A program made the position numbers and the translations under genes. 64,000 nucleotides of DNA from Candidatus Roizmanbacteria bacterium (lineage in GTDB: Bacteria > Patescibacteriota > Microgenomatia > UBA1406 > GWC2-37-13): positions 852 through 64,851 of the forward strand of contig JBBILO010000004.1 of NCBI GenBank assembly GCA_037444855.1. The letters run 5' to 3'. How positions within the stretch are numbered: position 1 is the first letter of the stretch; every line of letters starts with the position of its first letter. The notes below the pieces were generated by a model. The model searched no databases and had not been told where the DNA came from. It worked only from the letters and a program-made list of their open reading frames with translations. Positions 9,902 through 56,643 of the stretch are shown here, piece after piece.

Positions 9902-11120
9902 AAGTGAATAGTAAATTTTTAATTGTTTGAGCGAGATTTGATAAAGGGATAATTGTCTGTTCTTTTTTTTTCATTTTTTTTAGGATCACTGATTGTTTTT
10001 TTAATTCTTCTGGCGTAACAATCACGACCAATTTAATGCCTTTTTTATCAGCATATTTAAGTTGTTTTTCTAATTTTCTTTCTTCGTTGAGATTAATCTC
10101 GGTATTAATTTCTGATTTTCTTAGTTCATCGGCAATTTTTAAGGCATCCTTCATGTTCTCCTTAAAATAGGCAACATAAACTGATGAAAGCGTATTTTCT
10201 TCAGGAAGAAGATGATCATCTTTAATGATATCAATAATTCGGTCAAATCCAAAAGCAAAACCAACTGCTGGAATATTGATACTGGTAAACTGACCAATTA
10301 GATTATCATAACGTCCGCCGCCACCCAGAGATCCTCCTTGATAATTTTCATCAACTAACTCAAAAATAATCCCTGTATAGTAATCTAAACCGCGAGCAAG
10401 GGTTGGCGAAAAGGCAAAATCAACTCCTTCTTTTAGATCAAGATTGGTCAAGAGATTAAATAACTCTTTTATTTTCTTTGTTGGTTTGATTTTTTTTATT
10501 TGAATTAGGATTTTTTTTGCATCTTTTAATCCTTTTTCTTTTAATTCCTCGACTACTTTCTTTTCTCCGATTTTTTCTAATTTATCAATTGAGGTAATGA
10601 CTTTTGGTGAAAAATCTTTAAACACTTCTCGATCATTGATTAACATTCTTGCTTTAGAAAAACCGAGTTTTTTAATTGTTTTTAAAACCAAGTGAATAAT
10701 TTCAACTTCTGCTAAAAGACTATTTTCCCCAACAATATCAATATCGCATTGAACAAACTCTCGATAGCGACCTTTCTGAGTATTCTCAGCTCGCCAAACC
10801 GGCTGAATTTGATATCTTTTGAATGGTTTAATAATATTTCTGTATTGAGCGATAATACGGGCTAAAGGTACGGTTTGATCATATCTTAAACCAATATTTC
10901 TTCCGCCTCGATCCTGAAAAAGATAGATTAACCTATCAACCTCTTCTCCATATTTGTTTAACAAAATATCAGCATACTCTAACGTTGGTGTTTCTAAAGG
11001 ATCAAATCCATAGATCTCAAAACTCTTTTTAAAAGAATTAATCACCTTTTGTCTTAAAATTGCTTCGTTAGGTAAAAAATCACGGAAACCTTTGAGAGTT
11101 CTTGGTTGGATTTTTAACAT
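9891..11120 (-). CDS. hisS: Histidine--tRNA ligase
   Basis: LRYDQTVPLAR, FKRYQIQPVWRAE, GGGGRYDNL. Start moved from the track's 11201 to ATG 11120 (MLKIQPRTLKGFRDFLP). The track's 27-aa extension is translated repeat DNA, and an extended -10 sits 6 nt upstream of 11120. Confidence 0.9.
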   Translation of the reverse strand: MLKIQPRTLKGFRDFLPNEAILRQKVINSFKKSFEIYGFDPLETPTLEYADILLNKYGEEVDRLIYLFQDRGGRNIGLRYDQTVPLARIIAQYRNIIKPFKRYQIQPVWRAENTQKGRYREFVQCDIDIVGENSLLAEVEIIHLVLKTIKKLGFSKARMLINDREVFKDFSPKVITSIDKLEKIGEKKVVEELKEKGLKDAKKILIQIKKIKPTKKIKELFNLLTNLDLKEGVDFAFSPTLARGLDYYTGIIFELVDENYQGGSLGGGGRYDNLIGQFTSINIPAVGFAFGFDRIIDIIKDDHLLPEENTLSSVYVAYFKENMKDALKIADELRKSEINTEINLNEERKLEKQLKYADKKGIKLVVIVTPEELKKQSVILKKMKKKEQTIIPLSNLAQTIKNLLFTYDY

Positions 11121-11135
11121 GAGAAAATTATAGCA
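11121..11135 (-). promoter_or_regulatory. Extended -10 promoter TGCTATAAT placed 6 nt before the hisS ATG (leaderless geometry)
   Basis: Plus strand 11127-11135 attatagca is TGCTATAAT on the minus strand; 6 nt (tttctc) then ATG. Confidence 0.5.
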
Positions 11136-11146
11136 AAAGAGTGGAA

Positions 11147-11190
11147 AGAAATGTGGTAGAAACACGGCAGAAATACAGTAGAAATGTGTC
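11147..11190. repeat. Four tandem 11-nt units AGAAAnnnnnn (helically phased A-tracts) upstream of hisS
   Basis: AGAAATGTGGT AGAAACACGGC AGAAATACAGT AGAAATGTGTC read directly. A weaker fifth unit precedes at 11136-11146. Confidence 0.7.
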
Positions 11191-11196
11191 ATTAAA

Positions 11197-11301
11197 GTCA
11201 AAGTGCAAAAGGTAAAATTAGTATAAAAAGGTGTAAAAGTGTAAAAGTGTAAAGGTTAATTAGTTAACAAGTTGCTGGTTAGCTAGTTTGCTGGTTAATA
11301 A
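11197..11301. repeat. About 100-nt array of GT-initiated octamer words
   Basis: GTGTAAAA GTGTAAAA GTGTAAAG GTTAATTA GTTAACAA GTTGCTG GTTAGCTA GTTTGCTG GTTAATAA read directly. The 3' half is homologous to 45841-45873. Confidence 0.65.
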
Positions 11302-11323
11302 AAAATTTAAAATTAAAAACTGT

Positions 11324-11338
11324 CCTTCGATTCGGAGG
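11324..11338 (-). terminator. Weak hairpin downstream of htrA
   Basis: CCTTCG-ATT-CGGAGG (6 bp including one G-U pair). On the minus strand it is followed by ACAGTTTTT. Confidence 0.3.
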
Positions 11339-11362
11339 ATTTAAAATTTATTTTTATATTAG

Positions 11363-12526: not shown

Positions 12527-12531
12527 ATGAT

Positions 12532-14482: not shown

Positions 14483-14509
14483 AAAATAAATTATACAATT
14501 TCAAATTAA

Positions 14510-17747: not shown

Positions 17748-17749
17748 TT

Positions 17750-19767: not shown

Positions 19768-21554
19768 TTTTTGTTAAGATGTTTTTGTTGGCAGAGATTA
19801 CTTTTTTGAAAATAATCTTTAAGTAATTGAGCAAAGTACGAATAACTATCACTAGGATAAATTCTAACCACACCGGTAAGGAATTCGTTTAGCTTGTTGA
19901 TTAATTTGTTGTCTGCAAGAAATAGAACAAAGGAAAACATTTTTTCTTGATAATATTCAGATAATGATTTGTAAAATAAAATTTCCTCAAGATTGTTGTT
20001 TAGTATTATCAATTTTTTATTTTTTAACCAAAATTCGAAATTAATTTTAATAATTTGACCCATATCTTTTTTAAATTTCTCTTTTGAATCATAATATCGC
20101 CAAACCAAACCATAAGGAGCATATAGTCCTAAATTATAAGTCGATTCAGTATAGATTGGAAGAGAGTTTTTTTTTAAAAAAAATTTTAAGTCTCCATTAA
20201 GGGGAATAATAAGCTGGGGATATCTTTTTTTAACTTTTTCTAAATAATATTGTCGTCGAAACATCGCCGGAAACAGTAATACTACTTTTTTAAACTTGGG
20301 AGATTGTTTTAGATAATAAAAATATGAAAAAGGAAAATAGGTTAAATCAGACTTGAGCATTAGAATTGAGTTTTTTTTTAAGGGAAAGATGATGTCATAG
20401 GCTAGTTGATGATATTGATCAGCATTTTTTAATTCCTTTATTATCTTATAAGATTTAAGAAAGTTTGATATAAGCAATAAAGTAATAAATAAATATAGAA
20501 ATATAGAGGAAATTTTTTTATGAAATCTATTCTTGAACAAATTTATGACATAATTTAAACCAAAAGTAAAAGGAAAAATTAAAAGTAAATAAAAAGCAAT
20601 TAAATATCTTTCGAAAGTTGCCAGTGAAAAACTATAAGAAAGATTAAAATTCGTGATGTACAAAAAAATAACATATAAAAAAAACGAAAAAAGAAAATAA
20701 TTTTTGAAAAAAGAATATTTCTTATTATTTTTTATTAGAAGATAAAAGCCAACAATGATTAATAACGCCCCCGTAGGTAAAAAATCTCCAACCACCATTA
20801 AAAAAGTCGAGACCAAAGAGGCAATTTGGTTAATAAAATTAGGAATAGAACCAAAATAGGCTTGTAAAGTACCATAAGAAGAACGCGTAATGAGTCTCAT
20901 TAGGCCATCAATTGTTTTGGCGTTTTCCCAATCAATAGGTGGGTTAAGATATAGGCTCGATAGAAAGGGATAAAGATAAAAGAAAGCGCTTATAAAAGGG
21001 ATAAATAACATATAATTCGTAAAAAATTTTCTATTGAGAATAAAAAAGGGAATAGCAAATAAAATAAATGAGTGGTGATGTGCGATTCCTAAAGCAATAA
21101 AAAAATAAAATAAATAAAGAATTTTTCTTTTCTTATTCTGATTAAATTTTAAACCTAAATAAATTATTCCTGAAATTATTAAATTGTTTAAGGCAAATAC
21201 TTCTGGAACAATTGAATAAAGCCAAACTAAATAAATAAAAGAAAAGTAAGAAATTGAAACCATAGCAATATTTTTATTAATCTTTAGCTCTTTGGTTAAT
21301 ATCAGATAGATAAAGTAAACTGAAGTAATTTGGGAAAAAATTGAGATCAGATTAGCAACGGTTATTGGATTGATAAAAAATAAAATTTTAGTTGAAATTA
21401 CCAGTAGAAAAGAGTATAACGGGTAGCCTGGTGGATGAGGGATGCTAAAGGAAGATTGAGCGACAAGAAATTCGGGCGAATCTCCGCCAAAAAGATACCG
21501 TGATTGGGTCAAATTATAAATTAAAAAAAAAATTAAAAACAGGACTTTGACCAT
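19749..21554 (-). CDS. DUF2723/TMEM260-like membrane protein (putative protein O-mannosyltransferase family)
   Basis: N-terminal GGDSPEFLVAQSSFSIPHPPGYPLYSFLL signature; polytopic with a C-terminal soluble domain; 601 aa. Confidence 0.65.
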   Translation of the reverse strand: MVKVLFLIFFLIYNLTQSRYLFGGDSPEFLVAQSSFSIPHPPGYPLYSFLLVISTKILFFINPITVANLISIFSQITSVYFIYLILTKELKINKNIAMVSISYFSFIYLVWLYSIVPEVFALNNLIISGIIYLGLKFNQNKKRKILYLFYFFIALGIAHHHSFILFAIPFFILNRKFFTNYMLFIPFISAFFYLYPFLSSLYLNPPIDWENAKTIDGLMRLITRSSYGTLQAYFGSIPNFINQIASLVSTFLMVVGDFLPTGALLIIVGFYLLIKNNKKYSFFKNYFLFSFFLYVIFLYITNFNLSYSFSLATFERYLIAFYLLLIFPFTFGLNYVINLFKNRFHKKISSIFLYLFITLLLISNFLKSYKIIKELKNADQYHQLAYDIIFPLKKNSILMLKSDLTYFPFSYFYYLKQSPKFKKVVLLFPAMFRRQYYLEKVKKRYPQLIIPLNGDLKFFLKKNSLPIYTESTYNLGLYAPYGLVWRYYDSKEKFKKDMGQIIKINFEFWLKNKKLIILNNNLEEILFYKSLSEYYQEKMFSFVLFLADNKLINKLNEFLTGVVRIYPSDSYSYFAQLLKDYFQKSNLCQQKHLNKNYFCLK

Positions 21555-21597
21555 TTAGAAATTATACTTTAAAGAATACTAAAAAGTAGAATTTAAT

Positions 21598-22162: not shown

Positions 22163-23779
22163 TTAAATTATTTCTTCTTTTTTCTTTCTTACAAACGCAA
22201 TCCATTCTTCAATAACTTCAAAAATTAATTTAAACGGAGATTCAATAATGAAATCAAAAATAAAAATAAAGAAATTAAGCCGAGCGACTTCCCTACTCAA
22301 GAAATTACCCAAAGAGAGAATCGGCATAAAGAAAAAATCAATGACTGGGGCAAAAATGCTTTCTTTTTCTTCCAATTTATATTCATTAACAACTTGTTTT
22401 ATTCGGTAAGAGAAAAAAGTTACTAACGAGACAAAAAAAACAAAGATGATTTTTGAGATTAAATTAAAATTTAAAATTGTTAAAATTTCGTTAATTAAAT
22501 CTAAAGTTATCAAAAAGGTTAAACTATAAAAAATTGTAAAACCAAAAAATAACACCGGTTTTTTTGCTTTAACTTTACTTTTAATAATGAACGTTTTTTT
22601 GGAATAGTCCGAATCTTTACTGATAATATCAATAATTCTTTCATATATTTTTTGGGTATTTTTTTGACCTGGAAGTTTAAAAAATAGCAGGATAAGGAGC
22701 ATCAATATCGGAGGAAATACAGTATTGATAAGAATTGAAGTAACATTAACTTCTCCATAAAGATATTGAGACAAAGGAAGCTCAAGTATTAAGGCAAAAA
22801 CCATTTTAGTCAAAAAAATATAGATAAAACTTCGTATCGCTAAATTTATTAGTCGAGAGTGAATACCTTGATATTTTTTTCGACAGAGAAACTCAACTTC
22901 TTCTTCAAGCTTTTCCTTGTTCTCAAGAAGTGTTTCAATTTCATTCATTTTTTCATCAACAAGACTGAATAAGATTAAAAATGGAGGGAGTTGTTTTTTT
23001 AAATAACGAGATATTTTGTTAACATATTGATTATTGAGAATTTGGTTTATCTTATCAACAATTTTGTTAAGTTTTTGGCCAAATTTTTTTAATTCATCTT
23101 TGTCAAAGTCGCCAATATTTTTATAAAAATTAATAAAAAGATGATATCTTTGATAGGCTTTATCACTTCGGCGAAAAACTCTTTCAATGGCGGCTAACAA
23201 ACATAAATCCCTTACCTCTGGCTTTAAATTTTCAATTGTAATTTTTTGGCAAAGAATTTGAAATAAGTAATAGCTAAAATAAGCCATTTTTTGAGATTTT
23301 ACCGGACTTAATTTTTCTTCGATTTCAGCGGTAATAATATGAAGAAGAAACTCCTCGCAGGCTAATTTTTCCTTACCGGAAAGACCAATCAATATTTCTT
23401 TTCTTAAATAGATGAAATTATCAATAATTTTTTGAACAAGAAGGCTGTCTTCGTAACCTAGTTCATCATGATTGAAATATCTTGCCCACAACAATTCACG
23501 GATAAGATTTTCCCCTTCATATTCGCCATCTGGATTAATCATCAAACGCCTTTTTAAGATTCTTTCAATCGCCGCTCGACGGATGAGGTGATCTTCTCGG
23601 TATTCGATTGCATTTCTTATTTTTTCATATAGAAGAGCAAAAAAAGAGACTGTTTGTGAAACATTAATTCTGCTGGCTTCATCGGGTTTAATTTTTTGCT
23701 TGATAGATTTGATTGATTGAACGAGGTATCCAAAATAAGGAGAAATTATTATTTTCTGATTAGAAGGATTATCAGCCAT
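22163..23779 (-). CDS. Unknown two-domain membrane protein (helical N-terminal domain of about 330 aa plus 5-6 C-terminal TM helices)
   Basis: Long ORF. Start set to ATG 23779 (MADNPSNQK). I can assign no catalytic motif. Confidence 0.6.
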   Translation of the reverse strand: MADNPSNQKIIISPYFGYLVQSIKSIKQKIKPDEASRINVSQTVSFFALLYEKIRNAIEYREDHLIRRAAIERILKRRLMINPDGEYEGENLIRELLWARYFNHDELGYEDSLLVQKIIDNFIYLRKEILIGLSGKEKLACEEFLLHIITAEIEEKLSPVKSQKMAYFSYYLFQILCQKITIENLKPEVRDLCLLAAIERVFRRSDKAYQRYHLFINFYKNIGDFDKDELKKFGQKLNKIVDKINQILNNQYVNKISRYLKKQLPPFLILFSLVDEKMNEIETLLENKEKLEEEVEFLCRKKYQGIHSRLINLAIRSFIYIFLTKMVFALILELPLSQYLYGEVNVTSILINTVFPPILMLLILLFFKLPGQKNTQKIYERIIDIISKDSDYSKKTFIIKSKVKAKKPVLFFGFTIFYSLTFLITLDLINEILTILNFNLISKIIFVFFVSLVTFFSYRIKQVVNEYKLEEKESIFAPVIDFFFMPILSLGNFLSREVARLNFFIFIFDFIIESPFKLIFEVIEEWIAFVRKKKEEII

Positions 23780-23799
23780 AAAGAAATTATAGCATAGCA

Positions 23800-25197
23800 C
23801 TAATCTAAAGTTAAGCCTTGATCGATAAGGATTTTTTTAATTTCAAGTAGTTTTTTCCCAAGTAAGTTTTCATTATTGGCTTCAACATTTAGTCTGACTA
23901 GCGGTTCGGTATTTGAACCTCGAAGGTTAAACCGCCAATCTTTATTTTCAATTGTTAATCCATCAATCTCAATGATTTTTTTATTTTGGTATAAGCTTTT
24001 GATTTTTTTAAACAAGTTAACCAGAGGTAGATTTTGAGGTAGATGATAATTAATTTCACCTGATTCATATGAGCTTTGAACTTTTTTCACTAGTTGCGAA
24101 AGAGGAGCATTTTTTTTAGAAATTAAATCCAAAAGAGTGATGATTACTCTGATGGTCGATTCTGCACCACCAGTTTCTTTAAAGTAATAATGACCAGAGG
24201 ATTCACCACAAAAAAAGACATTATTTTCATTCATTTTTTTCGTTATTAGAGCGTGACCAACAGGTGATAAGATAAAAATTCCTCGATATTTCTCAACAAT
24301 ATTTTTAAGATTATTGGTATAACGAACATCGGTCATGATAGAGCTATTAGGATAATGGACTAAAATCTCTTTGGCGATCAGTGATGAGATTAAACTTGAG
24401 GGTATAATTTGACCTTTTTCATCAACAAAAAAAACACGATCTGCATCACCATCGGTAGCGATTCCTAGATCAGCTCGTTTCTCTATCACATTCTTTTGAA
24501 GATCTTTTAAAGTTTCGAACTTTAATGGATTGGCTTCATGGGAAGGCATTCTTCCATCAAGTTGATAATTAAGTTTAATAACTTCGACTTTCAGTCTTTT
24601 CCAAAGTTCTTCAAACATTAAAATACCCATGGTATTGGCTGGATCGACAACAATTTTTAATTTTTTAATATTTGGATTAACCAACTCGAAGGCAAAATCA
24701 AATTCCTTTTTGAGGGCATCCTTAATTTTGTATAAATTGCCTTTTTTTGTTTTTTTTAATTCGATTCTATCACTCAAAACAAGATTTTTTACCTCTTCCA
24801 TCCCCATTTCTTTAGAAGCTTTATAAATTTTTCCTTGATGACAATAAAAAAATTTTATCCCATTCCATTCGGGCGGATTGTGTGAGGCTGAAATTTGAAT
24901 GCCAACATCTAACTGATTGACAATCGTCGAAAAATAAACTGTAGGTGTTGGCACCATTCCAAACGAGTAAACGTTGCCGCCCATTTCTAGGAGAGAATTA
25001 ATTGATTGATCGTAAAGTTTGAATGATGATAATCTCATGTCGTAGCCTATTCCCACCTTCAAGACCTCTTTTTTTAATTTATGAGAAAAATAAAAGTAGA
25101 TTGTTTTAATAATTTTTTTGATTACTTGTTCATTAATATCTATTGGATAAATTCCACGAATGTCATAGGCTTTAAAAATATTGGGATTAATTTTCAT
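23800..25197 (-). CDS. alpha-D-phosphohexomutase (phosphomannomutase/phosphoglucomutase/GlmM family)
   Basis: Active-site loop QISASHNPPEWNGIKF, metal loop ATDGDADRV, GESSGHYYF; 465 aa. Confidence 0.85.
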   Translation of the reverse strand: MKINPNIFKAYDIRGIYPIDINEQVIKKIIKTIYFYFSHKLKKEVLKVGIGYDMRLSSFKLYDQSINSLLEMGGNVYSFGMVPTPTVYFSTIVNQLDVGIQISASHNPPEWNGIKFFYCHQGKIYKASKEMGMEEVKNLVLSDRIELKKTKKGNLYKIKDALKKEFDFAFELVNPNIKKLKIVVDPANTMGILMFEELWKRLKVEVIKLNYQLDGRMPSHEANPLKFETLKDLQKNVIEKRADLGIATDGDADRVFFVDEKGQIIPSSLISSLIAKEILVHYPNSSIMTDVRYTNNLKNIVEKYRGIFILSPVGHALITKKMNENNVFFCGESSGHYYFKETGGAESTIRVIITLLDLISKKNAPLSQLVKKVQSSYESGEINYHLPQNLPLVNLFKKIKSLYQNKKIIEIDGLTIENKDWRFNLRGSNTEPLVRLNVEANNENLLGKKLLEIKKILIDQGLTLD

Positions 25198-25887: not shown

Positions 25888-25916
25888 TTGTAATTTTTAT
25901 CAATTAATGATATTAT
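25888..25916 (+). promoter_or_regulatory. Promoter of rpmF-nusB-rnc-rpsP with leaderless geometry
   Basis: TTGTAA (25888-25893), 17 nt, TATTAT (25911-25916), 6 nt, ATG 25923. The overlapping inverse TATAAT (25912-25917) could serve holA. Confidence 0.45.
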
Positions 25917-25922
25917 ATAAAA

Positions 25923-26072
25923 ATGGCACCATTACCAAAAAGGAAGCACTCAACACAAAGAAAGGGTAAAAGGATCAAAACAAGAACTGTTTTCCTACCT
26001 CAATTAACTTCTTGTAAACATTGCGGTAAACAAAAATTACCCCATCGTTTATGTCAATTTTGTCAAAAATAA
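25923..26072 (+). CDS. rpmF: 50S ribosomal protein L32 (not in the ORF track)
   Basis: Hand translation MAPLPKRKHSTQRKGKRIKTRTVFLPQLTSCKHCGKQKLPHRLCQFCQK, with a basic N-terminus and CxxC..CxxC. 49 aa. Confidence 0.85.
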   Translation: MAPLPKRKHSTQRKGKRIKTRTVFLPQLTSCKHCGKQKLPHRLCQFCQK

Positions 26073-26444: not shown

Positions 26445-27144
26445 GCAAATTGTTCGATTAGAAAAGAAAATTGGCTTAATATTTAAAGATAAAAAAATTG
26501 TTTTAAATGCATTCGTTCATCGTTCATTTCTCAATGAACATAAAGATTTTCCTCTTCCCTCGAATGAAAAAATGGAATTTCTTGGCGATAGTATTTTATC
26601 TTTAGCCTGTTCCCTTTTTCTTTTCCAAAATTTTCAATCCTATTCTGAAGGTGAATATACAGAGATAAAAGCTGCGTTAGTGAAGACAGAGACACTCGCT
26701 AAAATCGCTAAAAAATTAGATTTAGATGAATATCTCTTGTTATCAAAAGGTCAAGAGAAAAACGAAGGTCGAAATAACATTAATATTTTAGCTGGTTGCT
26801 TTGAAGCATTTATTTGTGCCATATTTTTAAATTTTGATTTTCAAAACGTTTACGACTTTCTAACACGAGCTTTTTTTGAAAAAGAAGTAGCTTATATCAT
26901 AAAAAATAATTTGTACTCCTCGGCAAAAACAAAATTACAAGAGCAAACCCAAAAGAGATATAGTGCAACCCCTGTGTATCAAGTGGTTGAAGAAAAAGGT
27001 CCACCACACAATAAGACATTTAAAATTAATGTTTTTTTAGGAAAGAAAAATATTGGTACTGGGCTTGGTAAGTCTAAAAAAGAAGCTGAAGAAAACGCTG
27101 CCAAAAAAGCGCTAGATTTTTTAAAAAATAATAGTATAATTTAA
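26428..27144 (+). CDS. rnc: Ribonuclease III
   Basis: Signature NEKMEFLGDSIL and C-terminal dsRBD (GPPHNKTFKI..GKSKKEAEENAAKKAL). ATG 26428 preferred. Confidence 0.9.
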   Translation: MKGYFKQIVRLEKKIGLIFKDKKIVLNAFVHRSFLNEHKDFPLPSNEKMEFLGDSILSLACSLFLFQNFQSYSEGEYTEIKAALVKTETLAKIAKKLDLDEYLLLSKGQEKNEGRNNINILAGCFEAFICAIFLNFDFQNVYDFLTRAFFEKEVAYIIKNNLYSSAKTKLQEQTQKRYSATPVYQVVEEKGPPHNKTFKINVFLGKKNIGTGLGKSKKEAEENAAKKALDFLKNNSII

Positions 27145-27146
27145 CT

Positions 27147-27389
27147 ATGGTAGTAGCACTAAGATTGATGAGATTGGGTAAAAAAAATCGACCATTTTAT
27201 CGAATTGTGGCTATAGAAAAGACAAAAAAAAGAAATGGTAAATATCTTGAAAAGATAGGAACATATGACCCATTTGAAGAAAGTCCGGTTAGAATTGATG
27301 ATCAAAAATTCAAATTTTGGATTAACAAAGGAGCTCAAATCTCAAAAGGTTTAAGGAGAATTCTCAAAAGGCAAAAGCCTATTCATTAA
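27147..27389 (+). CDS. rpsP: 30S ribosomal protein S16
   Basis: MVVALRLMRLGKKNRPFYRIVA..YDP; 80 aa. Confidence 0.9.
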   Translation: MVVALRLMRLGKKNRPFYRIVAIEKTKKRNGKYLEKIGTYDPFEESPVRIDDQKFKFWINKGAQISKGLRRILKRQKPIH

Positions 27390-32576: not shown

Positions 32577-33276
32577 TATTTTTGGCATTTCTATCTATCA
32601 TAATTTCTTTTTTAATTAAAATCAAGTAGTTGTCTAGTGCTAGTTGGGGATTGATATTATTATTTTCAATTAAATTGATAAGATTGAGTCCTTCTTTAAT
32701 AATTTCTGAGAGTAATGAGTAATCTCTATTGTTTTTTTGTTTGATTTTAAAAAAAAATTTCCTTGTTAGTTTAATTATTATTAAAAGTAAATAGATCGCT
32801 CTTTCTTTTGTGGTAACTTCAAAGAAAGAATTAGTAAAGTGAGAAGTCAAGTTTGGATCAAGCAAGATTTTTTCTACTTCTGCAACTTCTTTTTTTTGAT
32901 ATTCAAAATCAGGTTGTGATTTATTTAAGTAAATAACTCTAGTTCTTGAAATAATTGTTGGTAGTAATTTATTAAGATTTCTTACTGCTAAAAGAATTAG
33001 ATTATTGGTTGCTTGTTCCTCCAGGGTTTTTAATAAGGCATTTTGAGCCTCAATATTTGCTTTATCAAAATCATAAAAAATTATCAAAGAAATTTCCTTT
33101 TTCACGTATTTGAAAATTTTTGTAATTTCTCTAATTTGATCAACAGTAATCCCTTTTTCTTTAAGTGGTTCGATTTTAGTAATATTAAAGAAATTAATAT
33201 GAAATTTTTTTATTTCTTGATTGATATATTGATCAAGAGTAATTCTATTCTTAAAAATAATTAACTGCGGAATCAT
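32563..33276 (-). CDS. holB: DNA polymerase III delta-prime-like subunit (degenerate, no P-loop)
   Basis: [40 protein letters not shown] matches the HolB sensor and SRC region. Start set to ATG 33276 because a TATAAT lies 6 nt upstream. Confidence 0.6.
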
Positions 33277-33282
33277 TCTAAA

Positions 33283-33317
33283 ATTATATTGCATTTTTAC
33301 GAGACTCAACATATATT
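33283..33317. promoter_or_regulatory. Back-to-back promoters of holB (minus) and pilB (plus), both with leaderless geometry
   Basis: On the minus strand, TATAAT (33283-33288) lies 6 nt before holB ATG 33276. On the plus strand, TTGCAT (33289-33294), 17 nt, TATATT (33312-33317), then 6 nt before pilB ATG 33324. Confidence 0.5.
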
Positions 33318-33323
33318 TTATTT

Positions 33324-37361: not shown

Positions 37362-39077
37362 TTATAATTTTTTGTCGACTTTTTTGTAAATTCTGATTAC
37401 CGGATGGTCAAAAACCGTCCAAGTCTCCTCGGCTTCTTCATCAGGAAACTCCAGAAGTTTTTTTCCTAATAACTCGATTTTTGGAAAATTTGAAAAAGTT
37501 TTAATTAATTGGTATTGGCTTGAAAAAAGAAGATTCTGATAATAATTTTGTAAAAGAGGGTATTTTTTTAATATTTCTTTACACCTATTTTTATCGTAGC
37601 TGATGTCATTGGCATTAAAAATGCACGTATAATTATAGATTAATCTTCTTGAAGGGATAATGATATAATCTGCTTTTTTGAGATATTGTTCCAGGTCTAC
37701 CTGAAGCAAACGATCATTATCAAGATCATAAAAATTAAATGCAACATAATCGAATTTTTTTCCATTAGTTTCATCGATTGTAAAGGGAACATCGACAACG
37801 TTAGCGGTTTCTGATAAAATAAAAGCATTATTTTCTAAGTGTTGAAAAATCCATTTAGAAGCTGTAATTCTTATATCCTCATTTTGATAAATTGAAAAAA
37901 ATGTTATCCCGGGGAGAATTGAAACAAACAATAGTAAAAGGTATAAAAAATTAGATTTTATTTTCATCAAAAAAATTACCGAGAAAACTAACATTAAAGG
38001 AAAAATTGGTGCAAGAAAACGGGACCATTTTACATAAAGAAAAGCATTAATCAAAAAATAAGAAATGATACTCATCTTAAGAATTAGATTTTTCTTATCT
38101 TTCCATGAGGTAAGAATAAATCCCAGCAAAAACAAGATAAATAACGGCCAACCAAGTGAATATGGAAAAATTTTAAAAAATTGGAACATTATAGGGATAC
38201 TCTTTTCAAATTGATAAGTATAAAAGACTTTTATTCTCCCAGTCGCTACAGCCGTTTCATAGTTAATTGATGATAAAAATTCGGCAGAGTTTAAAAAATT
38301 ATGTGGTGAAGAAATGAAAAAAAATAATAAGGTATAAAGTAAGAAAATTAATTGGTTGACAAATCTTTCCTGCCATGTTTTTGACTTAAGAAAAAAAGTA
38401 ATTAAAACAGTGATCAAGAATGTTAAACTACTAACTTTTGTTCCAAGAGACAAGCCTGACAACAATCCAAGAAAAAAGACATTTTTTCTGCTTAAGGGGC
38501 GATCTAACATCATTTTAAGACATAAATAGACGATGCCTGTATAAAAAAACATCAAAAGAGACTCGGTAGTGCCAAAGTGAGCGTATTGGATAAAAAAAGG
38601 GACAAAAATAAAAACAGACAAACTTAAAAGAAAACGCCAACTTTTTTCAGGATAAATCAATCTAAAAATATGCAGTAGGAGATAAAAATTTAAAATACTA
38701 GCCAACAAAGAGGTAATTCTTAGAGAAAGGACAGCCTCGGGGTAAGTAATTATTAAATCGGGATATTTTTTTATAAAGTGAATTAAATTTAGCCATATCA
38801 AGCTTAAATAAAGAGGTAATTGTCCGTAGGCATAAAAATGAGGTTGATAACAATTTTTCAACCAGAGGAAAAAATGATTGAAATTTAAGCCTGATGATAA
38901 ATCATAAGGTGGACAGCGAAGATTTTGAAGGGCAACAGCCATATTTCTTTCATCCGGATGCATTGGCAGTGGTAGTCCCCAACTAATATTAGTAATTCTT
39001 GTTAAAATAAGACTGCTAAGAAGAAAAACCCAACAGATAAAAGATATTAATCTCTTGATTTTTTTGAATTTTTTCAT
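37362..39077 (-). CDS. GT-C fold glycosyltransferase (GT39/ArnT/PMT-like)
   Basis: More than 10 TM helices. First-loop motif GLPLPMHPDERNMAV and C-terminal soluble domain. 571 aa, convergent with pilC. Confidence 0.6.
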   Translation of the reverse strand: MKKFKKIKRLISFICWVFLLSSLILTRITNISWGLPLPMHPDERNMAVALQNLRCPPYDLSSGLNFNHFFLWLKNCYQPHFYAYGQLPLYLSLIWLNLIHFIKKYPDLIITYPEAVLSLRITSLLASILNFYLLLHIFRLIYPEKSWRFLLSLSVFIFVPFFIQYAHFGTTESLLMFFYTGIVYLCLKMMLDRPLSRKNVFFLGLLSGLSLGTKVSSLTFLITVLITFFLKSKTWQERFVNQLIFLLYTLLFFFISSPHNFLNSAEFLSSINYETAVATGRIKVFYTYQFEKSIPIMFQFFKIFPYSLGWPLFILFLLGFILTSWKDKKNLILKMSIISYFLINAFLYVKWSRFLAPIFPLMLVFSVIFLMKIKSNFLYLLLLFVSILPGITFFSIYQNEDIRITASKWIFQHLENNAFILSETANVVDVPFTIDETNGKKFDYVAFNFYDLDNDRLLQVDLEQYLKKADYIIIPSRRLIYNYTCIFNANDISYDKNRCKEILKKYPLLQNYYQNLLFSSQYQLIKTFSNFPKIELLGKKLLEFPDEEAEETWTVFDHPVIRIYKKVDKKL

Positions 39078-39140
39078 ATAATAATAATAAATTATAAGAG
39101 TTTTATATTTACTTTATATTTTATTGATATTTTAAAATTA

Positions 39141-40716: not shown

Positions 40717-40746
40717 TTGATCTTTTTTTAAAAATTTGATTAGAAT
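40717..40746 (+). promoter_or_regulatory. Promoter of the GH73-like gene A with leaderless geometry
   Basis: TTGATC (40717-40722), 18 nt, TAGAAT (40741-40746), 6 nt, ATG 40753. Confidence 0.4.
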
Positions 40747-40752
40747 AAAAGT

Positions 40753-41346
40753 ATGAAAAAGAAATTATTTATTTTCCCCCTTTTTTTTATTGTATTGATC
40801 ATCAATTTTTATATCGTTATGATCCTTAATATTCAAAATAAAAATCAGGATATGGTTCAAAAAATATTTTACGAAATAAATCATATTAACAATCAAAATA
40901 ACTTTTCTGTGCTTCCTTCCTTGGATAAATCATCGGTTAATTTCGAAACAGAATTGGTTTTAGGCGATAGTCGGCTTGCCAACTTAAAATCATTTTTTAG
41001 AAAATATAATTCTCCACTTTATGACTATGCCGAAAAGATTATTGAGGTTTCCGATCGATATCATTTTGACTATCGATTGCTACCAGCAATCGCCATGCAA
41101 GAATCAAATTTGTGTTTAAAAATTCCTGAAAATTCTCATAATTGTTGGGGTTGGGGGATTTACGGAGACAAGGTAACAAAATTTAATTCATATGAGGAAG
41201 CGATTGAAGTTGTTGCTAAGGGAATTAAAGAAGAATACCTAGATAAGGGTTTAGTGACGGCTTCTCAGATAATGAAAAAGTATACTCCACCTTCGACTGG
41301 AAGCTGGGCAAAAGGAGTTAATTTATTTATAAGATTATTGGAATAA
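40753..41346 (+). CDS. Membrane-anchored GH73-like (glucosaminidase-type) peptidoglycan hydrolase, paralog A
   Basis: N-terminal TM. LLPAIAMQESNL..SHNCWGWG fits the ..A.ES..G...N.FG pattern of LytD/FlgJ-type glucosaminidases. Paralogous to 42778-43341. Confidence 0.5.
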   Translation: MKKKLFIFPLFFIVLIINFYIVMILNIQNKNQDMVQKIFYEINHINNQNNFSVLPSLDKSSVNFETELVLGDSRLANLKSFFRKYNSPLYDYAEKIIEVSDRYHFDYRLLPAIAMQESNLCLKIPENSHNCWGWGIYGDKVTKFNSYEEAIEVVAKGIKEEYLDKGLVTASQIMKKYTPPSTGSWAKGVNLFIRLLE

Positions 41347-49177: not shown

Positions 49178-49178
49178 A

Positions 49179-50216
49179 TCAGAATTGCTCTAAAAAGCGG
49201 ATATCACCGCTATATAAAATTCTAATATCATTAATTTCAATTCCTTCTTTCATTATCATGCAACGTTCGGGTCCAAATCCAAAAGCCCAACCGGAATATT
49301 CATTTGGGTCAATTCCGCCGGCTTTTAAAACATTTGGATGGACTAAGCCAGCTCCAGCTAGTTCTAACCAGCCAGACTTACAAACCTTACACTTTCGACC
49401 GCTAATTTCACCTTTTCCCTGGCACAGACCACAAGAAACATCAATTTCAAATGAAGGTTCAGTAAATTGAAAATGTGCCGGTCTCAATCTGATCGTTCTT
49501 TCTATTCCAAAAAAATTCTTGACAAAAAAATCAATGGTCCCTTTAAGATGAGTAATATTGATATCTTTATCAATGCATAAACCTTCAAATTGATGAAACA
49601 TGGGCGTATGGGTTGTATCCCAATTAGGTCGATATGTTTTGGCAATATTAATCATTCTAATTGGTGGTTTTATCCGGCGCATTTCTCGATTTTGGCCAGA
49701 GGATGTATGAGGAGAGAGAATCATTTTTCCAAATTTTTTATTTTCAGGAAAATCGACAAAAAAAGTTTCAAAATCATCTCTTGCTGGATGACCTTTGGGC
49801 ATGTTTAACGCTTCAAAGGCAAAATATTCCCATTCGACTTCGGGATAGGAAACGCGGACAAAACCGAGTTTATGAAAGATGCTAACGATTTCTTCTATAG
49901 TATAGGTTAATGGATGGAGACTGCCTTTAGGATATTTTTTGCCCGGTAAGGTTGGGTCAAAAAATCGATCGTGTTTTTTGTTTTTAATTAGTTTCACTTT
50001 TTCTTTAATTTGACTTTCGACGAATTGTTTAAATTCATTAATTTGCTTACCAAAAACTTTTTTTTCTTCGAGGGTGAGATCTTTAATTTTTAAAAGGAGA
50101 TTATTTATTATTCCATTTCTCCCAAGGTATGTTAAGCGAATTTCTTCGAGTTGATCAAAATTATTGATTTTTTCCAAAGATTCTAAAAACTCTTTTTTTA
50201 ATTGACTAGGATCCAT
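49179..50216 (-). CDS. pheS: Phenylalanine--tRNA ligase alpha subunit
   Basis: Class II motifs (HPARDDFETFF, FRPAHFQFTEPS, GFGPERC). 4-Cys insert CGLC..CKVC. Confidence 0.95.
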   Translation of the reverse strand: MDPSQLKKEFLESLEKINNFDQLEEIRLTYLGRNGIINNLLLKIKDLTLEEKKVFGKQINEFKQFVESQIKEKVKLIKNKKHDRFFDPTLPGKKYPKGSLHPLTYTIEEIVSIFHKLGFVRVSYPEVEWEYFAFEALNMPKGHPARDDFETFFVDFPENKKFGKMILSPHTSSGQNREMRRIKPPIRMINIAKTYRPNWDTTHTPMFHQFEGLCIDKDINITHLKGTIDFFVKNFFGIERTIRLRPAHFQFTEPSFEIDVSCGLCQGKGEISGRKCKVCKSGWLELAGAGLVHPNVLKAGGIDPNEYSGWAFGFGPERCMIMKEGIEINDIRILYSGDIRFLEQF

Positions 50217-50223
50217 AAAAAAT

Positions 50224-50229
50224 ATTATA
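50224..50229 (-). promoter_or_regulatory. -10 box TATAAT 7 nt before the pheS ATG
   Basis: Plus attata at 50224-50229; 7 nt; ATG at 50216. Confidence 0.4.
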
Positions 50230-50827: not shown

Positions 50828-50829
50828 AT

Positions 50830-53418
50830 TCATGTTGGCGATGGCGTCAACGTTGGAAATTCTGTTGGTGTTGGCGTTGTTGTTGGGGCTATCGTTGGTT
50901 CTTGAAAATCCCAAGGCTTATTGACACCAAAACGTATCTCACTTTCTCCTACCTTCCCTTTCTCGTTTTCCGCTCTTATTTTTAATTTATAAACACCATC
51001 ACTTAGTTGAAATTCTTCATCTATTGAGATTTTATTTTCATGCCATTCTTTAAGTTTTTGATTGTTGAGAAAGATTTCCACTTTTCTTATTGGAGATAAA
51101 CTGGTAATTTTTGTTTTAAGTGTAATTTTATTATCATTAATCGTTGATTGATTCGAAGGTTCCTTGATTGAAATAACAACATCTTCACTCGAAGCGTCAG
51201 ATATTTCTGTTGGAGGATGATATTTTGGATCTGATAAACTTTTTACCCATTGATCAATCCCCTCTTGCCATCGATTTTTACCATCGGTTGATACCGGATC
51301 ATCTTCCGTGAAGACAACAAACTCTTTTTCTTCATAATTGCCTGTTTTAATCTCAATCTCATTGGCTAGCTTTCCAGTTGATTTTGAAATCTTTAATTTT
51401 TTGTAGAATGGAGAGAGAGATCTGGGTTCGGTGCCTTCAATAAAATATTCTGACCGTTTTGGATATCCTTCTTTAGGTAATCCACCTAAGTAAGCGTCGA
51501 TTTCTAAGGCTTTGACCTTATTGGGTTTTTCAATAATTCCATCTTGATATTTTTTAAGCAGTTCAATCATCCCGCGATAAAAAATTGGTGAAGCTCCGGT
51601 AACACCTGACGCAATTCTCGGATCCATTTTTGAATTATCATTATTTCCTACCCAAACGCCAACAGTGATATCTTTGGTAAAGCCAACTGCCCAATTATCC
51701 CTTTTATCATCAGATGTCCCAGTCTTAACCGCAACGGTTTTTCCCGGTATTCTCAAATATGAATTAAGACCAAAAACTTCGGCTCTGGCATTGTTGTCTG
51801 ATAAAATATGGGAGATTAAAAAAGAGACTTCTGGTGAAAAAATTTTATTTTCAGCAGTTTTTTTTGATCGATAAATCAGCTTATTATTAAAATCTTTAAT
51901 TTCAAAAATGGCATTAACATCTTTGGCGACCCCACCACGAGCGAAAGTACTCATTGCTTTGGTTAAATCCAAAAGAGTGGTTTCGCCACCGCCAAGAGTA
52001 ATTGATAAACCAAAACGTGTTAAATTTTTTTCATTAGGTTCAAAGGTAGTAATACCCATTTGATAAGCTTTTTGGAGAAAGTTTTTTACCCCTACAATAG
52101 CGAGCATTTTTACTGCTGGTATATTTTCTGAATTCCCAAGAGCAAAACGAATTTGCATGGGTCCACGAAATTTACCATCATAGTTTTGTGGAATGTAATC
52201 AGCTCCTCCCTGTTGAGGAAAGACTGTTTTGACATCCATTAAAACTGAAGATGGGGTATATCCCTTTTCAAAAGCAAGGGCATAGGTGATTGGCTTTAAG
52301 GTAGAACCAGGTTGTCTTAAGCCTAATGCGGCATTAAAATTGCCATATTTTTTATCGTTATAGTCATATGAGCCAATCATGGCGAGGATATTGCCGGTTT
52401 TATTTTCAATAACAACTAAAGCACCATTGGTGGCGTTAAGACTTTTTATTTTATTTATTTCATCTTTAACTATCTTCTCTAATTTATTTTGAAGTTCTAA
52501 ATCAATAGTTGTTTTTATTTTTAAACCTTGATTAAGAATATTAGCACCAAACTCTTTTTCAATTAAATCTTTGACATAAAAGACAAAATGAGGGGCGTTG
52601 ATGCTTAGCTTGGGGTGAGAAAAACTGAGCTTATTCATCTCTTCAAGTGCTTTCTTCTCTTGCTTACTATCGATATAACCATCTTCTCTCATCCGACGAA
52701 GAACATCTTGAGTTCGTCTTTTCCAAGTATCTTTTTTTCCAATAAAAGGAGAATAAATGCTTGGCGATTGAGGCAAACCAGCTAAGAAGGCCGATTCAAT
52801 CAGCGATAAATTTTTTGGCTCTTTGCCAAAATATCCACGAGCGGCTGATCCTACTCCCCAAAATGTTCCTCCATAGGGAGCCTCATTAAGATACATCTCT
52901 AAAATTTGGTCTTTTGTATATCTTCGTTCGACTTCAAAGGCAAGAATAATCTCCTTAATTTTTCTCGAAGGTGTTCTTTTAGAGTCAAGTAAGACATTTT
53001 TAATTAATTGTTGAGTAATCGTTGAGCCTCCTTGCAACTGCTTTCGAAAAATAAATGAATAAATAAAGGCACGAATTAAACCTGTTTGGGAGATTCCTTT
53101 ATGTTGATAAAAATTTTTATCTTCAATGGCAATCGTCGCTTGAACTAAATATTTTGATACGTCATCTAATTTAACAGGGACACGATTTTTATCTTTATAT
53201 AGTTCAAAAAGGATTTTATTATTTTTGTCATAAAAAACAGTTGATTTCTCAGATTGAGAAAGTTTTCCAGGCGAAGGTAGATCTTTAGCAAACCAGGCAA
53301 AGACAATTAATGAGAAAAAGAAACTTGATAAAATAAATATACCCAGAATTATCAATAATTTTGAATAGAGACTTATAACTTGGTAATTTTTCTTAATATT
53401 ATTGGGGTGATAGATCAT
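50830..53418 (-). CDS. Class A penicillin-binding protein (PBP1A-type) with C-terminal extension and Thr/Pro-rich tail
   Basis: Glycosyltransferase EDKNFYQHKGI and RKIKE. Transpeptidase STLK, SEN and KTGT. About 220 extra C-terminal aa ending TIAPTTTPTPTEFPTLTPSPT. Confidence 0.92.
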   Translation of the reverse strand: MIYHPNNIKKNYQVISLYSKLLIILGIFILSSFFFSLIVFAWFAKDLPSPGKLSQSEKSTVFYDKNNKILFELYKDKNRVPVKLDDVSKYLVQATIAIEDKNFYQHKGISQTGLIRAFIYSFIFRKQLQGGSTITQQLIKNVLLDSKRTPSRKIKEIILAFEVERRYTKDQILEMYLNEAPYGGTFWGVGSAARGYFGKEPKNLSLIESAFLAGLPQSPSIYSPFIGKKDTWKRRTQDVLRRMREDGYIDSKQEKKALEEMNKLSFSHPKLSINAPHFVFYVKDLIEKEFGANILNQGLKIKTTIDLELQNKLEKIVKDEINKIKSLNATNGALVVIENKTGNILAMIGSYDYNDKKYGNFNAALGLRQPGSTLKPITYALAFEKGYTPSSVLMDVKTVFPQQGGADYIPQNYDGKFRGPMQIRFALGNSENIPAVKMLAIVGVKNFLQKAYQMGITTFEPNEKNLTRFGLSITLGGGETTLLDLTKAMSTFARGGVAKDVNAIFEIKDFNNKLIYRSKKTAENKIFSPEVSFLISHILSDNNARAEVFGLNSYLRIPGKTVAVKTGTSDDKRDNWAVGFTKDITVGVWVGNNDNSKMDPRIASGVTGASPIFYRGMIELLKKYQDGIIEKPNKVKALEIDAYLGGLPKEGYPKRSEYFIEGTEPRSLSPFYKKLKISKSTGKLANEIEIKTGNYEEKEFVVFTEDDPVSTDGKNRWQEGIDQWVKSLSDPKYHPPTEISDASSEDVVISIKEPSNQSTINDNKITLKTKITSLSPIRKVEIFLNNQKLKEWHENKISIDEEFQLSDGVYKLKIRAENEKGKVGESEIRFGVNKPWDFQEPTIAPTTTPTPTEFPTLTPSPT

Positions 53419-53424
53419 ATTAAA

Positions 53425-53430
53425 AGTATA
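53425..53430 (-). promoter_or_regulatory. -10 box TATACT 6 nt before the PBP1A ATG
   Basis: Plus agtata at 53425-53430; 6 nt; ATG at 53418. Confidence 0.4.
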
Positions 53431-53477
53431 CTAAACAAATCGATTAATTTTAGATGATGGGGTAAAAATAATTTCTA

Positions 53478-54086: not shown

Positions 54087-54088
54087 CT

Positions 54089-55780
54089 TTAAATATTAAT
54101 GATTTCAACTATCACCAACGGCTTTCTTCCCTTTATCCGAAAATAAAATTCTTCTAATTTATTGATAATTTCACGTTTAATATTGTTTAGTTTGAAGGCT
54201 TTCTCTTTTTTTGGTTTTAAAATTTGAGCGACTATTTTCTTTGATTGCTTTAGCAACTCTTCCTCGTTTTTTTCGTATATGAATCCTCGAGTGACAATTC
54301 TCGGTTGGCTTAACAATCGAAAATTATTATCGAGTGTTAAGATAACGACGACGATGCCTTCGGTGGCTAAATTTTTTCTATCTCGAAGTACGATATTTCC
54401 CACATCTCCGACTCCATAAGCATCTACATAAATAGTTTTTGTTTCGATCTTTCTACCAAGATATAATCGATTCTTTTCGATCCATAACGAGTCTCCTTCC
54501 TCCAATAAAAAGACTGAGTTTTCAGGATATCCTAGCTCTTTAACTATTCGCTGAAACTGTCTTTGATGACGAAGGGTTCCTCCAATAGGAACAAAGTATT
54601 TTGGATTAATGAATCGAATAAGAAACTTTAAGTCGTCAATATTGCCATGACCAGAGGCATGAAGTTGGTCACTAATACTTGGGTAGATTACCTCAGCGCC
54701 TTTTTTTATTAATTCCTCGACCAAATCATAAACCTCAGTTTCGTTGCCAGGAATTGGATCAGAAGAAAAAATAATCTTGTCGCCTTTGGTAATTTTAACG
54801 TTTGGATTATCGCCTCTTGATATTTTTGCCAAGGCAGAATCAAATTGTCCTTGTGAACCGGCAACAATCAGACAAATTTTTTTGGGTGGATAACGATTAA
54901 TTTGTTCTTCTTTAATTAAAATTGATTCCAAGCCTGAGAGATAACCAATTTCTTTAGCCGCTTTAGTATTTTCTTTCATCGACCGTCCAAGAAAAGCAAT
55001 TTTCCGATTTAATTTTTGAGCGACCTCGATACATTGTCTTATCCGAGAAATATTGCTTGAGAACGTGGTCATGATAAATTTGCCTTTGGTGGTTCGCATT
55101 TCTCGCTCAAAGCTTTCCCCAACAACGCTTTCTGACAGAGTTAACCCTTCTCTTTCCGCGCCCAACGAATCTGAAAGCAAAAGATTAACACCAATTTTGC
55201 CTACTTTAGTTATTTCATAAAAATTAGGAGGTGGTCCATAAGGAGGAGTAAGATCAAATTTAAAATCAGCTCCGTGGTAAACATTGCCTGCCGGCGTTTG
55301 AATAAAGATATGAGTGGTATCAGGAATTGAGTGAGTCACGTTAATAAATCTGACTTTAAAATTACTAAATTGATAATCAGTTAAATAACGGATTTCATTC
55401 ACTTTTTTTCGATAGCCAAAATCTTCAAGTTTCTTATTTAAGAAAAGGGCAGTTAGGCGACTACCGTATAAATCAGGTTGTTTTAATCGATCGTAAAGAT
55501 ATGGAATTCCACTGATATGATCTTCATGACCATGGGTAAACAGAATGGCCCGAATTTTACTGATTTTATCTTCTTTAGCTTTATCCTTTTCTGCTAAATA
55601 ACTGATATCAGGGATTATTAAATCAACCCCAAGTGATTTTTCTCTTGGAAAGCCAATTCCGCAATCAACAATTAAAATATCAACCAATTCATCATTTTGA
55701 TAAAGTTCATAAACATACATATTTTTTGTCACATCAGTTACGCCTCCTAAAGGAATGAATTTTAGTCGCCAATTGATCAT
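54089..55780 (-). CDS. rnj: Ribonuclease J
   Basis: Metallo-beta-lactamase HGHEDH, beta-CASP, RNase J C-terminal domain; 563 aa. Confidence 0.92.
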   Translation of the reverse strand: MINWRLKFIPLGGVTDVTKNMYVYELYQNDELVDILIVDCGIGFPREKSLGVDLIIPDISYLAEKDKAKEDKISKIRAILFTHGHEDHISGIPYLYDRLKQPDLYGSRLTALFLNKKLEDFGYRKKVNEIRYLTDYQFSNFKVRFINVTHSIPDTTHIFIQTPAGNVYHGADFKFDLTPPYGPPPNFYEITKVGKIGVNLLLSDSLGAEREGLTLSESVVGESFEREMRTTKGKFIMTTFSSNISRIRQCIEVAQKLNRKIAFLGRSMKENTKAAKEIGYLSGLESILIKEEQINRYPPKKICLIVAGSQGQFDSALAKISRGDNPNVKITKGDKIIFSSDPIPGNETEVYDLVEELIKKGAEVIYPSISDQLHASGHGNIDDLKFLIRFINPKYFVPIGGTLRHQRQFQRIVKELGYPENSVFLLEEGDSLWIEKNRLYLGRKIETKTIYVDAYGVGDVGNIVLRDRKNLATEGIVVVILTLDNNFRLLSQPRIVTRGFIYEKNEEELLKQSKKIVAQILKPKKEKAFKLNNIKREIINKLEEFYFRIKGRKPLVIVEIINI

Positions 55781-55786
55781 ATTGAG

Positions 55787-55796
55787 ATTATATAAT
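55787..55796. promoter_or_regulatory. Palindromic ATTATATAAT providing overlapping -10 boxes for divergent rnj and the DUF59 gene
   Basis: The 22-bp intergenic region is 6 nt + ATTATATAAT + 6 nt. TATAAT reads outward on both strands, each 6 nt from its ATG (55780 and 55803). Confidence 0.55.
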
Positions 55797-55802
55797 ATTT
55801 AT

Positions 55803-56108
55803 ATGAAGAAATTGACAAAAAAAGTGGTTCTCAATACCTTAAAAAATGTTTACGACCCTGAATTGCACATTAATATCGTTGATCTTGGATTAATAAGAAA
55901 AGTCATTATTAAAAAAAGTGAGATAAGAATTGTTATGACATTGACAACCATTGGCTGTCCGCTAATCTCAGTCATTGAAGACGAAATAAAAAAACAATTA
56001 GAAAAAATCGGGCTTGCTGAAGAACAAGTTAAGATAGAACTCAATTTCGATCAACCATGGTCGATAGATGATATGACAGCTTCAGCAAGGGCAATGCTTG
56101 GATTATGA
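55803..56108 (+). CDS. DUF59/MIP18-family Fe-S cluster assembly protein (SufT/PaaD-like)
   Basis: VYDPELHINIVDLGLI signature and conserved Cys in TTIGCPL. Start set to ATG 55803. Confidence 0.8.
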   Translation: MKKLTKKVVLNTLKNVYDPELHINIVDLGLIRKVIIKKSEIRIVMTLTTIGCPLISVIEDEIKKQLEKIGLAEEQVKIELNFDQPWSIDDMTASARAMLGL

Positions 56109-56130
56109 TGAGATTTAATTTAATATTAAA

Positions 56131-56643
56131 ATGACTAAACCAGGATTTTTTGAGGATACCTTTGAAAAATTAGTTGAATTAGGGACAAGCACCGCAAAAA
56201 AAACTGGAAAATCACTGGCTCAAACATTTAGTCCATTAAAACTGTTAGAAAAATCCGTGGGACTAAATAATGGTCAAGATGATCTTCAAGAGAGGGAAAA
56301 GAAAATAAGCAAAGATTCTCATACTCCATTAAATTTTGAAAAATTAAAGGAGAAATATGAGCAACAGGATAAACAAAGGGAAAATGCTTTAAAGAATCGG
56401 CTTTTTCAATTAGTTAAACAAGGCGAAGAAAAAGAAATTGAAATAAAAAAACAAGAAGAAATGAAAAAAAAACAAGAGGAAGAAAGAGAGAGGGCAGAAA
56501 GAGAACGAAGGAAAAAAATTGAGGAAGAGCAAAAAACTCAAGAGTTGATACCAAGAGGAAAAATTAGACGAAGTATATTTAGCCCAAAAAAAGCAGCTCA
56601 ACAAAAGCATGCCGAATTCAAACCGGCTGCGAGTAAAAATTAA
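56131..56643 (+). CDS. Lys/Glu-rich low-complexity hypothetical protein
   Basis: 170-aa ORF with a long charged helix (EEKEIEIKKQEEMKKKQEEERERAERERRKKIEEEQ). TTTAAT lies 6 nt before the ATG. Confidence 0.45.
   Translation: MTKPGFFEDTFEKLVELGTSTAKKTGKSLAQTFSPLKLLEKSVGLNNGQDDLQEREKKISKDSHTPLNFEKLKEKYEQQDKQRENALKNRLFQLVKQGEEKEIEIKKQEEMKKKQEEERERAERERRKKIEEEQKTQELIPRGKIRRSIFSPKKAAQQKHAEFKPAASKN

Follow-up and report, generated by a model that had tools for sequence, protein, structure and literature searches.

Sequence signature of probable leaderless transcription before leading genes of a Candidatus Roizmanbacteria genome

The canonical sigma-70 promoter of the extended −10 type, TGnTATAAT as in Gram-positive bacteria, is usually followed by a leader of 20–50 nucleotides (nt). 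Another layout is considered here, in which TATAAT-like hexamers lie exactly 6 nt before an ATG start codon. It was noticed in a 64,000-nt stretch of DNA from a Candidatus Roizmanbacteria bacterium (assembly GCA_037444855.1, contig JBBILO010000004.1, positions 852 to 64,851 of the forward strand; hereafter the window). An original prediction, made from the letters of that window, listed nine genes with such a box and proposed that leaderless initiation is a major expression mode in this organism.

Two described systems are close to this one. In the group C genomes of GeneMarkS-2, a Pribnow box 6–8 nt before the start of first operon genes is the signature of bacterial leaderless transcription. 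Among Actinobacteria 90% belong to this group and among Deinococcus-Thermus 97%; 25–50% of operons are affected, and examples include Mycobacterium tuberculosis, Streptomyces and D. deserti (PMC6028130). In Flavobacterium johnsoniae, which is one of the Bacteroidia and belongs to group B, bS21/bS18/bS6 hold the anti-Shine–Dalgarno (anti-SD) sequence sequestered, and a strong Shine–Dalgarno (SD) site remains only before rpsU (PMC7797042, PMC9976891). An extended rpsU SD and bS21 autoregulation have been described for the Flavobacteriales (PMC9976891).

Within the Candidate Phyla Radiation (CPR, or Patescibacteria), loss of the anti-SD has been noted only in some Parcubacteria and not in Microgenomates (Tsurumaki et al., PMC9297842). 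Our literature search found no report of leaderless genes in CPR/Patescibacteria, which is weak evidence since subscription journals were mostly uncovered. A preprint on the TM7x transcriptome leaves promoters and leaders unmentioned, and start sites inferred from RNA-seq in TM7x have been used elsewhere with no discussion of leaderless genes (PMC12641261). The mechanism is already known; the lineage is new for it.

The explanation that we hold with high confidence is that the boxes are ordinary sigma-70 (RpoD) promoters giving leaderless mRNAs at leading genes, an arrangement shared with Microgenomates and, more weakly, with other Patescibacteria. Such a promoter would consist of a −10 box, in many cases joined by an extended −10 TG and by a −35 TTGnnn that is weak and has a 17-nt spacer; its position would make +1 coincide with the A of the ATG in the first gene of the transcription unit. 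The resulting mRNA would carry neither a 5′ untranslated region nor an SD site. The ribosome and its initiator tRNA would then presumably bind the 5′-terminal AUG directly, as the geometry and the example of other bacteria suggest. At the level of sequence, the predictions of leaderless transcription are supported wherever they were checked.

The source assembly comprises 938 kb in 41 contigs, has a GC content of about 31% and is 97% complete by marker genes. It was read with genetic code table 11, and long open reading frames (ORFs) are dense in the window. Genome-wide, 914 genes were called with a dicodon model, for which ORFs of at least 300 amino acids (aa) served as the training set. The start of a gene was set at its first in-frame ATG, a choice made against circularity, and 863 starts were analysed in this way. 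The gap is defined as the number of nt between a −10-like hexamer and the ATG, and the background was taken from 300 dinucleotide-preserving shuffles of the 40 nt upstream of each start. Exact TATAAT stands at gap 6 before 54 of the 863 starts (6.3%), against 2.0 ± 1.5 in the shuffles (maximum of 7 in 300), and a hexamer with at most one mismatch before 116 (13.4%), against 24.7 ± 4.7. The background comparison proposed together with the original prediction is thus strongly positive. Exact TATAAT drops to 1.3–1.7% of starts at gaps 7–9 and to about 0.3% at the remaining offsets, and the hexamer with at most one mismatch is found in 2–3% far upstream. Overall, the offsets adjoining gap 6 are 3–20 times lower than gap 6 itself.

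In a genome of 31% GC, TATAAT-like words could reflect chance or the composition of AT-rich intergenic DNA. They could also be an artefact of the ORF definition acting through in-frame stops, since the TAA within TATAAT is in frame at gaps 2, 5, 8 and 11 and could inflate those offsets. This is almost certainly not the explanation: the shuffles and the low values at the neighbouring offsets both refute it. At gap 6, moreover, the TAA is out of frame, so that defining a start as the first ATG after a stop cannot produce the peak; the in-frame effect may add slightly to gap 8. The peak is absent at internal in-frame ATGs and at all 23,307 genomic ATGs, and it is equally absent before in-frame GTG and TTG start candidates. 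Its specificity for ATG is in line with leaderless translation, which is known to depend on AUG.

The bases around the boxes also have the character of a promoter. RpoD is encoded by one gene above the NCBIfam cut-off, and the word in the box is the sigma-70 consensus, base for base. In the logo of the 116 gap-6 sites, numbered from the A of the ATG, T prevails at −17 and −15 (65% each), G reaches 28% at −14, and TTGA appears at −35 to −32. For these elements, one set of controls consisted of 18,070 TATAAT-like hexamers from other parts of the genome and a second of 3,832 from intergenic DNA. The extended −10 TG at −15/−14 is present in 24% of the gap-6 sites versus 5–6% of the controls (p = 2e-11); for a −35 TTG separated from the box by 17 nt, the figures are 14.7% and 2.6% (p = 1e-8). 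A smaller excess of TTG is seen at an 18-nt spacer, and none at spacers of 13–16 or 19–22 nt when gap-6 sites are compared with control hexamers. Of the gap-6 sites, 74% have a pyrimidine at −1, and +1 is A. Counted from this A, the two elements occupy −12 to −7 and −35 to −30, the textbook sigma-70 register.

These features bear on the proposal that the word is not a promoter but a translation signal acting without an SD on leadered mRNAs, for example an AU-rich enhancer or a binding site for S1. The proposal has some appeal, because SD sites are rare in this genome and another signal for start selection is therefore needed; an S1-like protein is encoded, and the word can be likened to the A-rich motif of group B genomes. 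A translation signal would, however, be expected before internal operon genes too, where the box is 6 times rarer. Neither would it bring along an extended −10 TG or a −35 TTG at exactly 17 nt, nor is it expected to equal the sigma-70 consensus at each base. We regard it as very improbable.

The boxes are concentrated at genes that lead an operon. A gap-6 box precedes about 20% of leading genes, with 21.6% for divergent genes and 30% for genes lying 41–100 nt behind a co-directional gene, against 3.4% of genes at most 15 nt behind a co-directional gene. The 80 nt before 451 leading genes were also scored with a generic E. coli-type −10 matrix. The best −10 is at gap 6 in 68 of 299 cases, by far its commonest place, and at gaps 7–10 in 62 together, against 2–4 at each gap beyond 14 nt. 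After subtraction of the background, about 17% of leading genes look leaderless if gap 6 alone is counted, and about 27% if gaps 5–8 are, which would correspond to 11–19% of all genes. The original interpretation as leaderless initiation is supported, with a qualification as to its extent. The sharp gap-6 peak, the promoter register, the bias towards leading genes and the specificity for ATG all speak for it, but leaderless starts appear to be a large minority of leading genes rather than the dominant mode. Paired divergent leaderless promoters show no excess, with 7 pairs genome-wide versus 6.4 expected if independent. The spacings of the divergent pairs in which both genes look leaderless are 20, 20, 22, 33, 42, 47 and 71 nt.

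Related genomes were searched for the same arrangement, with orthologue starts judged by the nearest in-frame ATG. Starts of tblastn alignments were tried as evidence for start codons and dropped as noisy, since the alignments extend into translated upstream DNA. For hisS, a TATAAT-like box at gap 5–8 is present in 24 of 32 relatives; in most of the 32 the orthologue ATG lies within about one codon of position 11120, usually with no upstream in-frame ATG, which supports the shortened hisS start. Before rnj, the box stands at gap 6 from the homologous ATG in 12 of 29 orthologues from the family or order, and several others have it 20–35 nt upstream, corresponding to short leaders. In 23 of 26 DUF59 orthologues the ATG has a codon offset of 0 or +1, and in three of five holB orthologues it has an offset of 0 with a gap-6 box. 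The same-genus relative has the PBP1A box at gap 7.

On a broader scale, 55 pooled Roizmanbacteria-like loci (881 kb, 657 genes) give peaks at gap 6 (10.8%) and gap 8 (9.0%), and 25 more distant Microgenomates loci a peak at gaps 6–7. Among class-level genomes, a gap-6 peak of 7–15% is found in four of five. Forty pooled phylum-level genomes retain a weaker one (5–6.5% vs about 2%) and also show a modest SD peak. These counts suggest that the leaderless signature is widespread in the phylum, yet variable. In the Roizmanbacteria relatives the gap-8 peak is about as high as that at gap 6, whereas gap 6 dominates in the genome studied here. Gap-8 boxes of hisS orthologues often read TGTATAAT followed by 8 nt. 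The gap-8 peak of the relatives could reflect a lineage-specific choice of start site, 2-nt leaders or, in part, the effect of in-frame TAA.

RNA polymerase start-site choice shifts by a few nt, and the promoters might thus be real while the mRNAs are only nearly leaderless. Transcription would then begin 1–3 nt off the A, or the true start codon would lie downstream and the ATG next to the box would belong to a short leader. Boxes at gaps 7–9 are indeed enriched as well (5.4–6.6% vs about 2.3%), and the second peak of the relatives at gap 8, often with the hisS-type sequence just given, points the same way. Three observations nevertheless make this improbable. The peak of the genome itself is sharp at gap 6, the canonical −12 to −7 register; the bases at −1 and +1 are those given above, pyrimidine and A; and the orthologue N-termini of hisS, rnj and DUF59 coincide with the ATGs adjacent to the boxes.

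The use of SD sites is the second unusual trait of this genome. Before starts, the SD cores GGAG, GAGG and AGGA do not exceed about 1% at any offset, and an SD match of at least 5 nt within 20 nt is found before 7% of starts versus 8% of internal ATGs. By this measure SD sites are enriched in no gene class, internal genes included. A box and an SD match of at least 4 nt occur together in 0–2 of about 115 leaderless candidates, so that the two are nearly mutually exclusive. The original prediction had stressed that its boxed genes lack an SD, as opposed to internal or leadered genes. SD sites are rare everywhere, however, and their absence is no distinguishing mark. The contrast drew on three examples; of these, rpsU and rplL are true cases, though unrepresentative ones given the 7% of genes with an SD of at least 5 nt.

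Both belong to a small strong-SD class within this otherwise SD-poor genome: about 10 genes genome-wide carry a 10-nt SD (AAAGGAGGTG or AGGAGGTGAT). Other members, recognised from their N-terminal sequence, we take to be candidates for S20, S1, HU, ATP synthase c and MurA; example positions in this class are C2:33084, C2:66092, C10:17786, C2:77333, C6:36044 and C10:6932. Among order-level relatives, rpsU is preceded by an SD of at least 6 nt in 22 of 30, a parallel to the extended rpsU SD of the Flavobacteriales. Because these 10-nt SDs exist, the ribosome is probably not SD-blind, and SD pairing would be functional but seldom used. The 16S rRNA gene was not found in the assembly, although this is 97% complete by marker genes. 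In family relatives, the same genus included, the anti-SD is retained: each of the 17 full-length 16S genes has GGATCACCTCCTTTCT at its end, and the 16S tail CCTCCTTT is likewise found in 17 of 17. An S1-like ORF of 371 aa and infC are both present. The anti-SD, IF3 and S1, which the original prediction had singled out for inspection, are thus intact in relatives in the first case and unremarkable in the other two. When a gene follows a co-directional one at 5–40 nt, its −1 base is T in 72% of cases and C in 1%, with A-rich positions −3 to −5, and U at −1 is present in all gene classes. Where a gene has neither a leaderless start nor an SD, this U-AUG context may be what marks its start codon.

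How does this genome compare with the described systems? It resembles group C in the −10 box 6–8 nt before the AUG of first operon genes and in the lack of an SD there, with a share of about 17–27%. It differs in that the remaining genes of group C genomes are mostly SD-led, whereas here the SD is enriched in no class. The host also differs from the group C lineages, being a member of the CPR/Patescibacteria with low GC and a genome of less than 1 Mb. Judged from sequence, all the group C features are present except the use of SDs by the other genes. The Bacteroidia are approached from another side: the anti-SD is kept (17 of 17 relatives), SDs are rare, and rpsU keeps a long SD, as it does in 22 of 30 relatives. 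The difference from Bacteroidia is that the TATAAT word marks promoters of leading genes, with a 6 times lower frequency at internal ones, instead of being an A-rich motif found ahead of each gene, and that 10-nt SDs occur in about 10 other genes, rplL included. As to the canonical extended −10 promoter, the likeness extends to TATAAT, TG at −15/−14, T at −17, a weak −35 TTG at 17 nt and a pyrimidine–purine step at −1/+1. The only difference is what occupies +1, a start codon instead of a leader of 20–50 nt.

Several points weigh against leaderless transcription from these promoters. The identity of +1 with the A of the ATG would follow from spacing alone. The gene starts are our own calls (first ATG, long ORFs), a few of which may be wrong, and the genomes of relatives are non-independent samples. 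Finally, conservation gene by gene is lacking in places: the leaderless arrangement was seen in none of 15 distant pilB orthologues, and a gap-6 box in two of 17 for the KE-rich ORF and in five of 26 for DUF59.

Within the window (Table 1), all nine hexamers listed at the outset are where they had been placed, on the same strands and each exactly 6 nt before an in-frame ATG, and the TATAAT ascribed to pheS is found at gap 7. The list was incomplete, and four further gap-6 boxes are marked in the table. Pfam backs the identities of hisS, rpmF (L32), holB (DNA_pol3_delta2), pilB (T2SSE), PBP1A and rnj, as well as those of the DUF59 gene (FeS_assembly_P), pheS, rpsU and rplL. The label "GH73-like" given to the 197-aa ORF was dropped, as Pfam gave no hit.

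Table 1. Boxes and start codons in the window, with two SD-led genes for contrast
Gene	Coordinates	Strand	Elements and start codon	Remark
hisS	11118..11135	-	extended −10 TGC-TATAAT (11127-11135), 6-nt gap, ATG 11120	
TMEM260-like glycosyltransferase gene	21552..21566	-	TATAAT (21561-21566), 6 nt, ATG 21554	new
538-aa ORF	23777..23814	-	−35 TTAACT, 17-nt spacer, TGC-TATAAT (23786-23794), 6 nt, ATG 23779	new
rpmF (L32)	25888..25925	+	TTGTAA, 17-nt spacer, TGA-TATTAT, 6 nt, ATG 25923	
rpsP (S16)	27135..27149	+	perfect TATAAT, 6 nt, ATG 27147	new
holB	33274..33288	-	TATAAT (33283-33288), 6 nt, ATG 33276	
pilB	33289..33326	+	TTGCAT, 17-nt spacer, TATATT, 6 nt, ATG 33324	
571-aa ORF	39075..39089	-	TATTAT (39084-39089), 6 nt, ATG 39077	new
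197-aa ORF	40717..40755	+	TTGATC, 18-nt spacer, TAGAAT, 6 nt, ATG 40753	"GH73-like A" earlier; no Pfam family
pheS	50214..50229	-	TATAAT (50224-50229), 7 nt, ATG 50216	
PBP1A	53416..53430	-	TATACT, 6 nt, ATG 53418	
rnj (RNase J)	55778..55792	-	TATAAT, 6 nt, ATG 55780	
DUF59/FeS_assembly_P gene	55791..55805	+	TATAAT, 6 nt, ATG 55803	
KE-rich 170-aa ORF	56119..56133	+	TTTAAT, 6 nt, ATG 56131	
rpsU (bS21)	59510..59525	-	10-nt SD AGGAGGTGAT, 3 nt, ATG 59512	contrast case
rplL	8211..8227	-	10-nt SD AAAGGAGGTG, 4 nt, TTG 8213	contrast case

The shortened starts advanced for hisS, holB and the DUF59 gene agree with the ATG positions of their orthologues. Starts set by the longest ORF are thus too long by 27 codons in hisS (24 from its first ATG), 12 in holB and 16 in DUF59. 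In short-form hisS, the Pfam tRNA-synt_His domain starts at residue 11. The KE-rich ORF is the weakest of the nine cases, with its TTTAAT, its position 22 nt behind the preceding gene and a gap-6 box in few orthologues. Two pairs of genes are divergent. The promoters of holB and pilB stand back to back, with 47 nt between the ATGs (33277-33323), and in the rnj/DUF59 pair 22 nt separate the ATGs (55781-55802), the −10 boxes on opposite strands overlapping by 2 bp. The rpsP gene begins 2 nt after the preceding gene, which places its promoter inside the 3′ end of that gene.

A broader scheme, speculative and rather unlikely in our view, would have three modes of start selection side by side in one cell, in Roizmanbacteria and much of Microgenomatia. 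These would be a 5′-terminal AUG, an SD-less U-AUG and a few long SDs, the availability of the anti-SD being controlled by bS21 in convergence with the Bacteroidia. Leaderless starts would then account for about one fifth to one quarter of transcription units and U-AUG for most others, with a small conserved set of 8–10-nt SDs kept for rpsU and a few highly expressed genes. If true, this would amount to a convergent rewiring of initiation in the reduced CPR ribosome.

The CPR/Patescibacteria form a large part of bacterial diversity; their ribosomes are reduced, and experimental molecular biology on them hardly exists. A leaderless signature, combined with near-absent SD use despite an intact anti-SD in relatives, points to a probable expression route for many CPR genes. 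The spacing of the box offers a practical rule for annotating start codons in metagenome-assembled CPR genomes. The signature also supplies compact native promoters for the genetic systems now emerging in the phylum, and the rnj/DUF59 region, bidirectional and 22 bp long, is one example.

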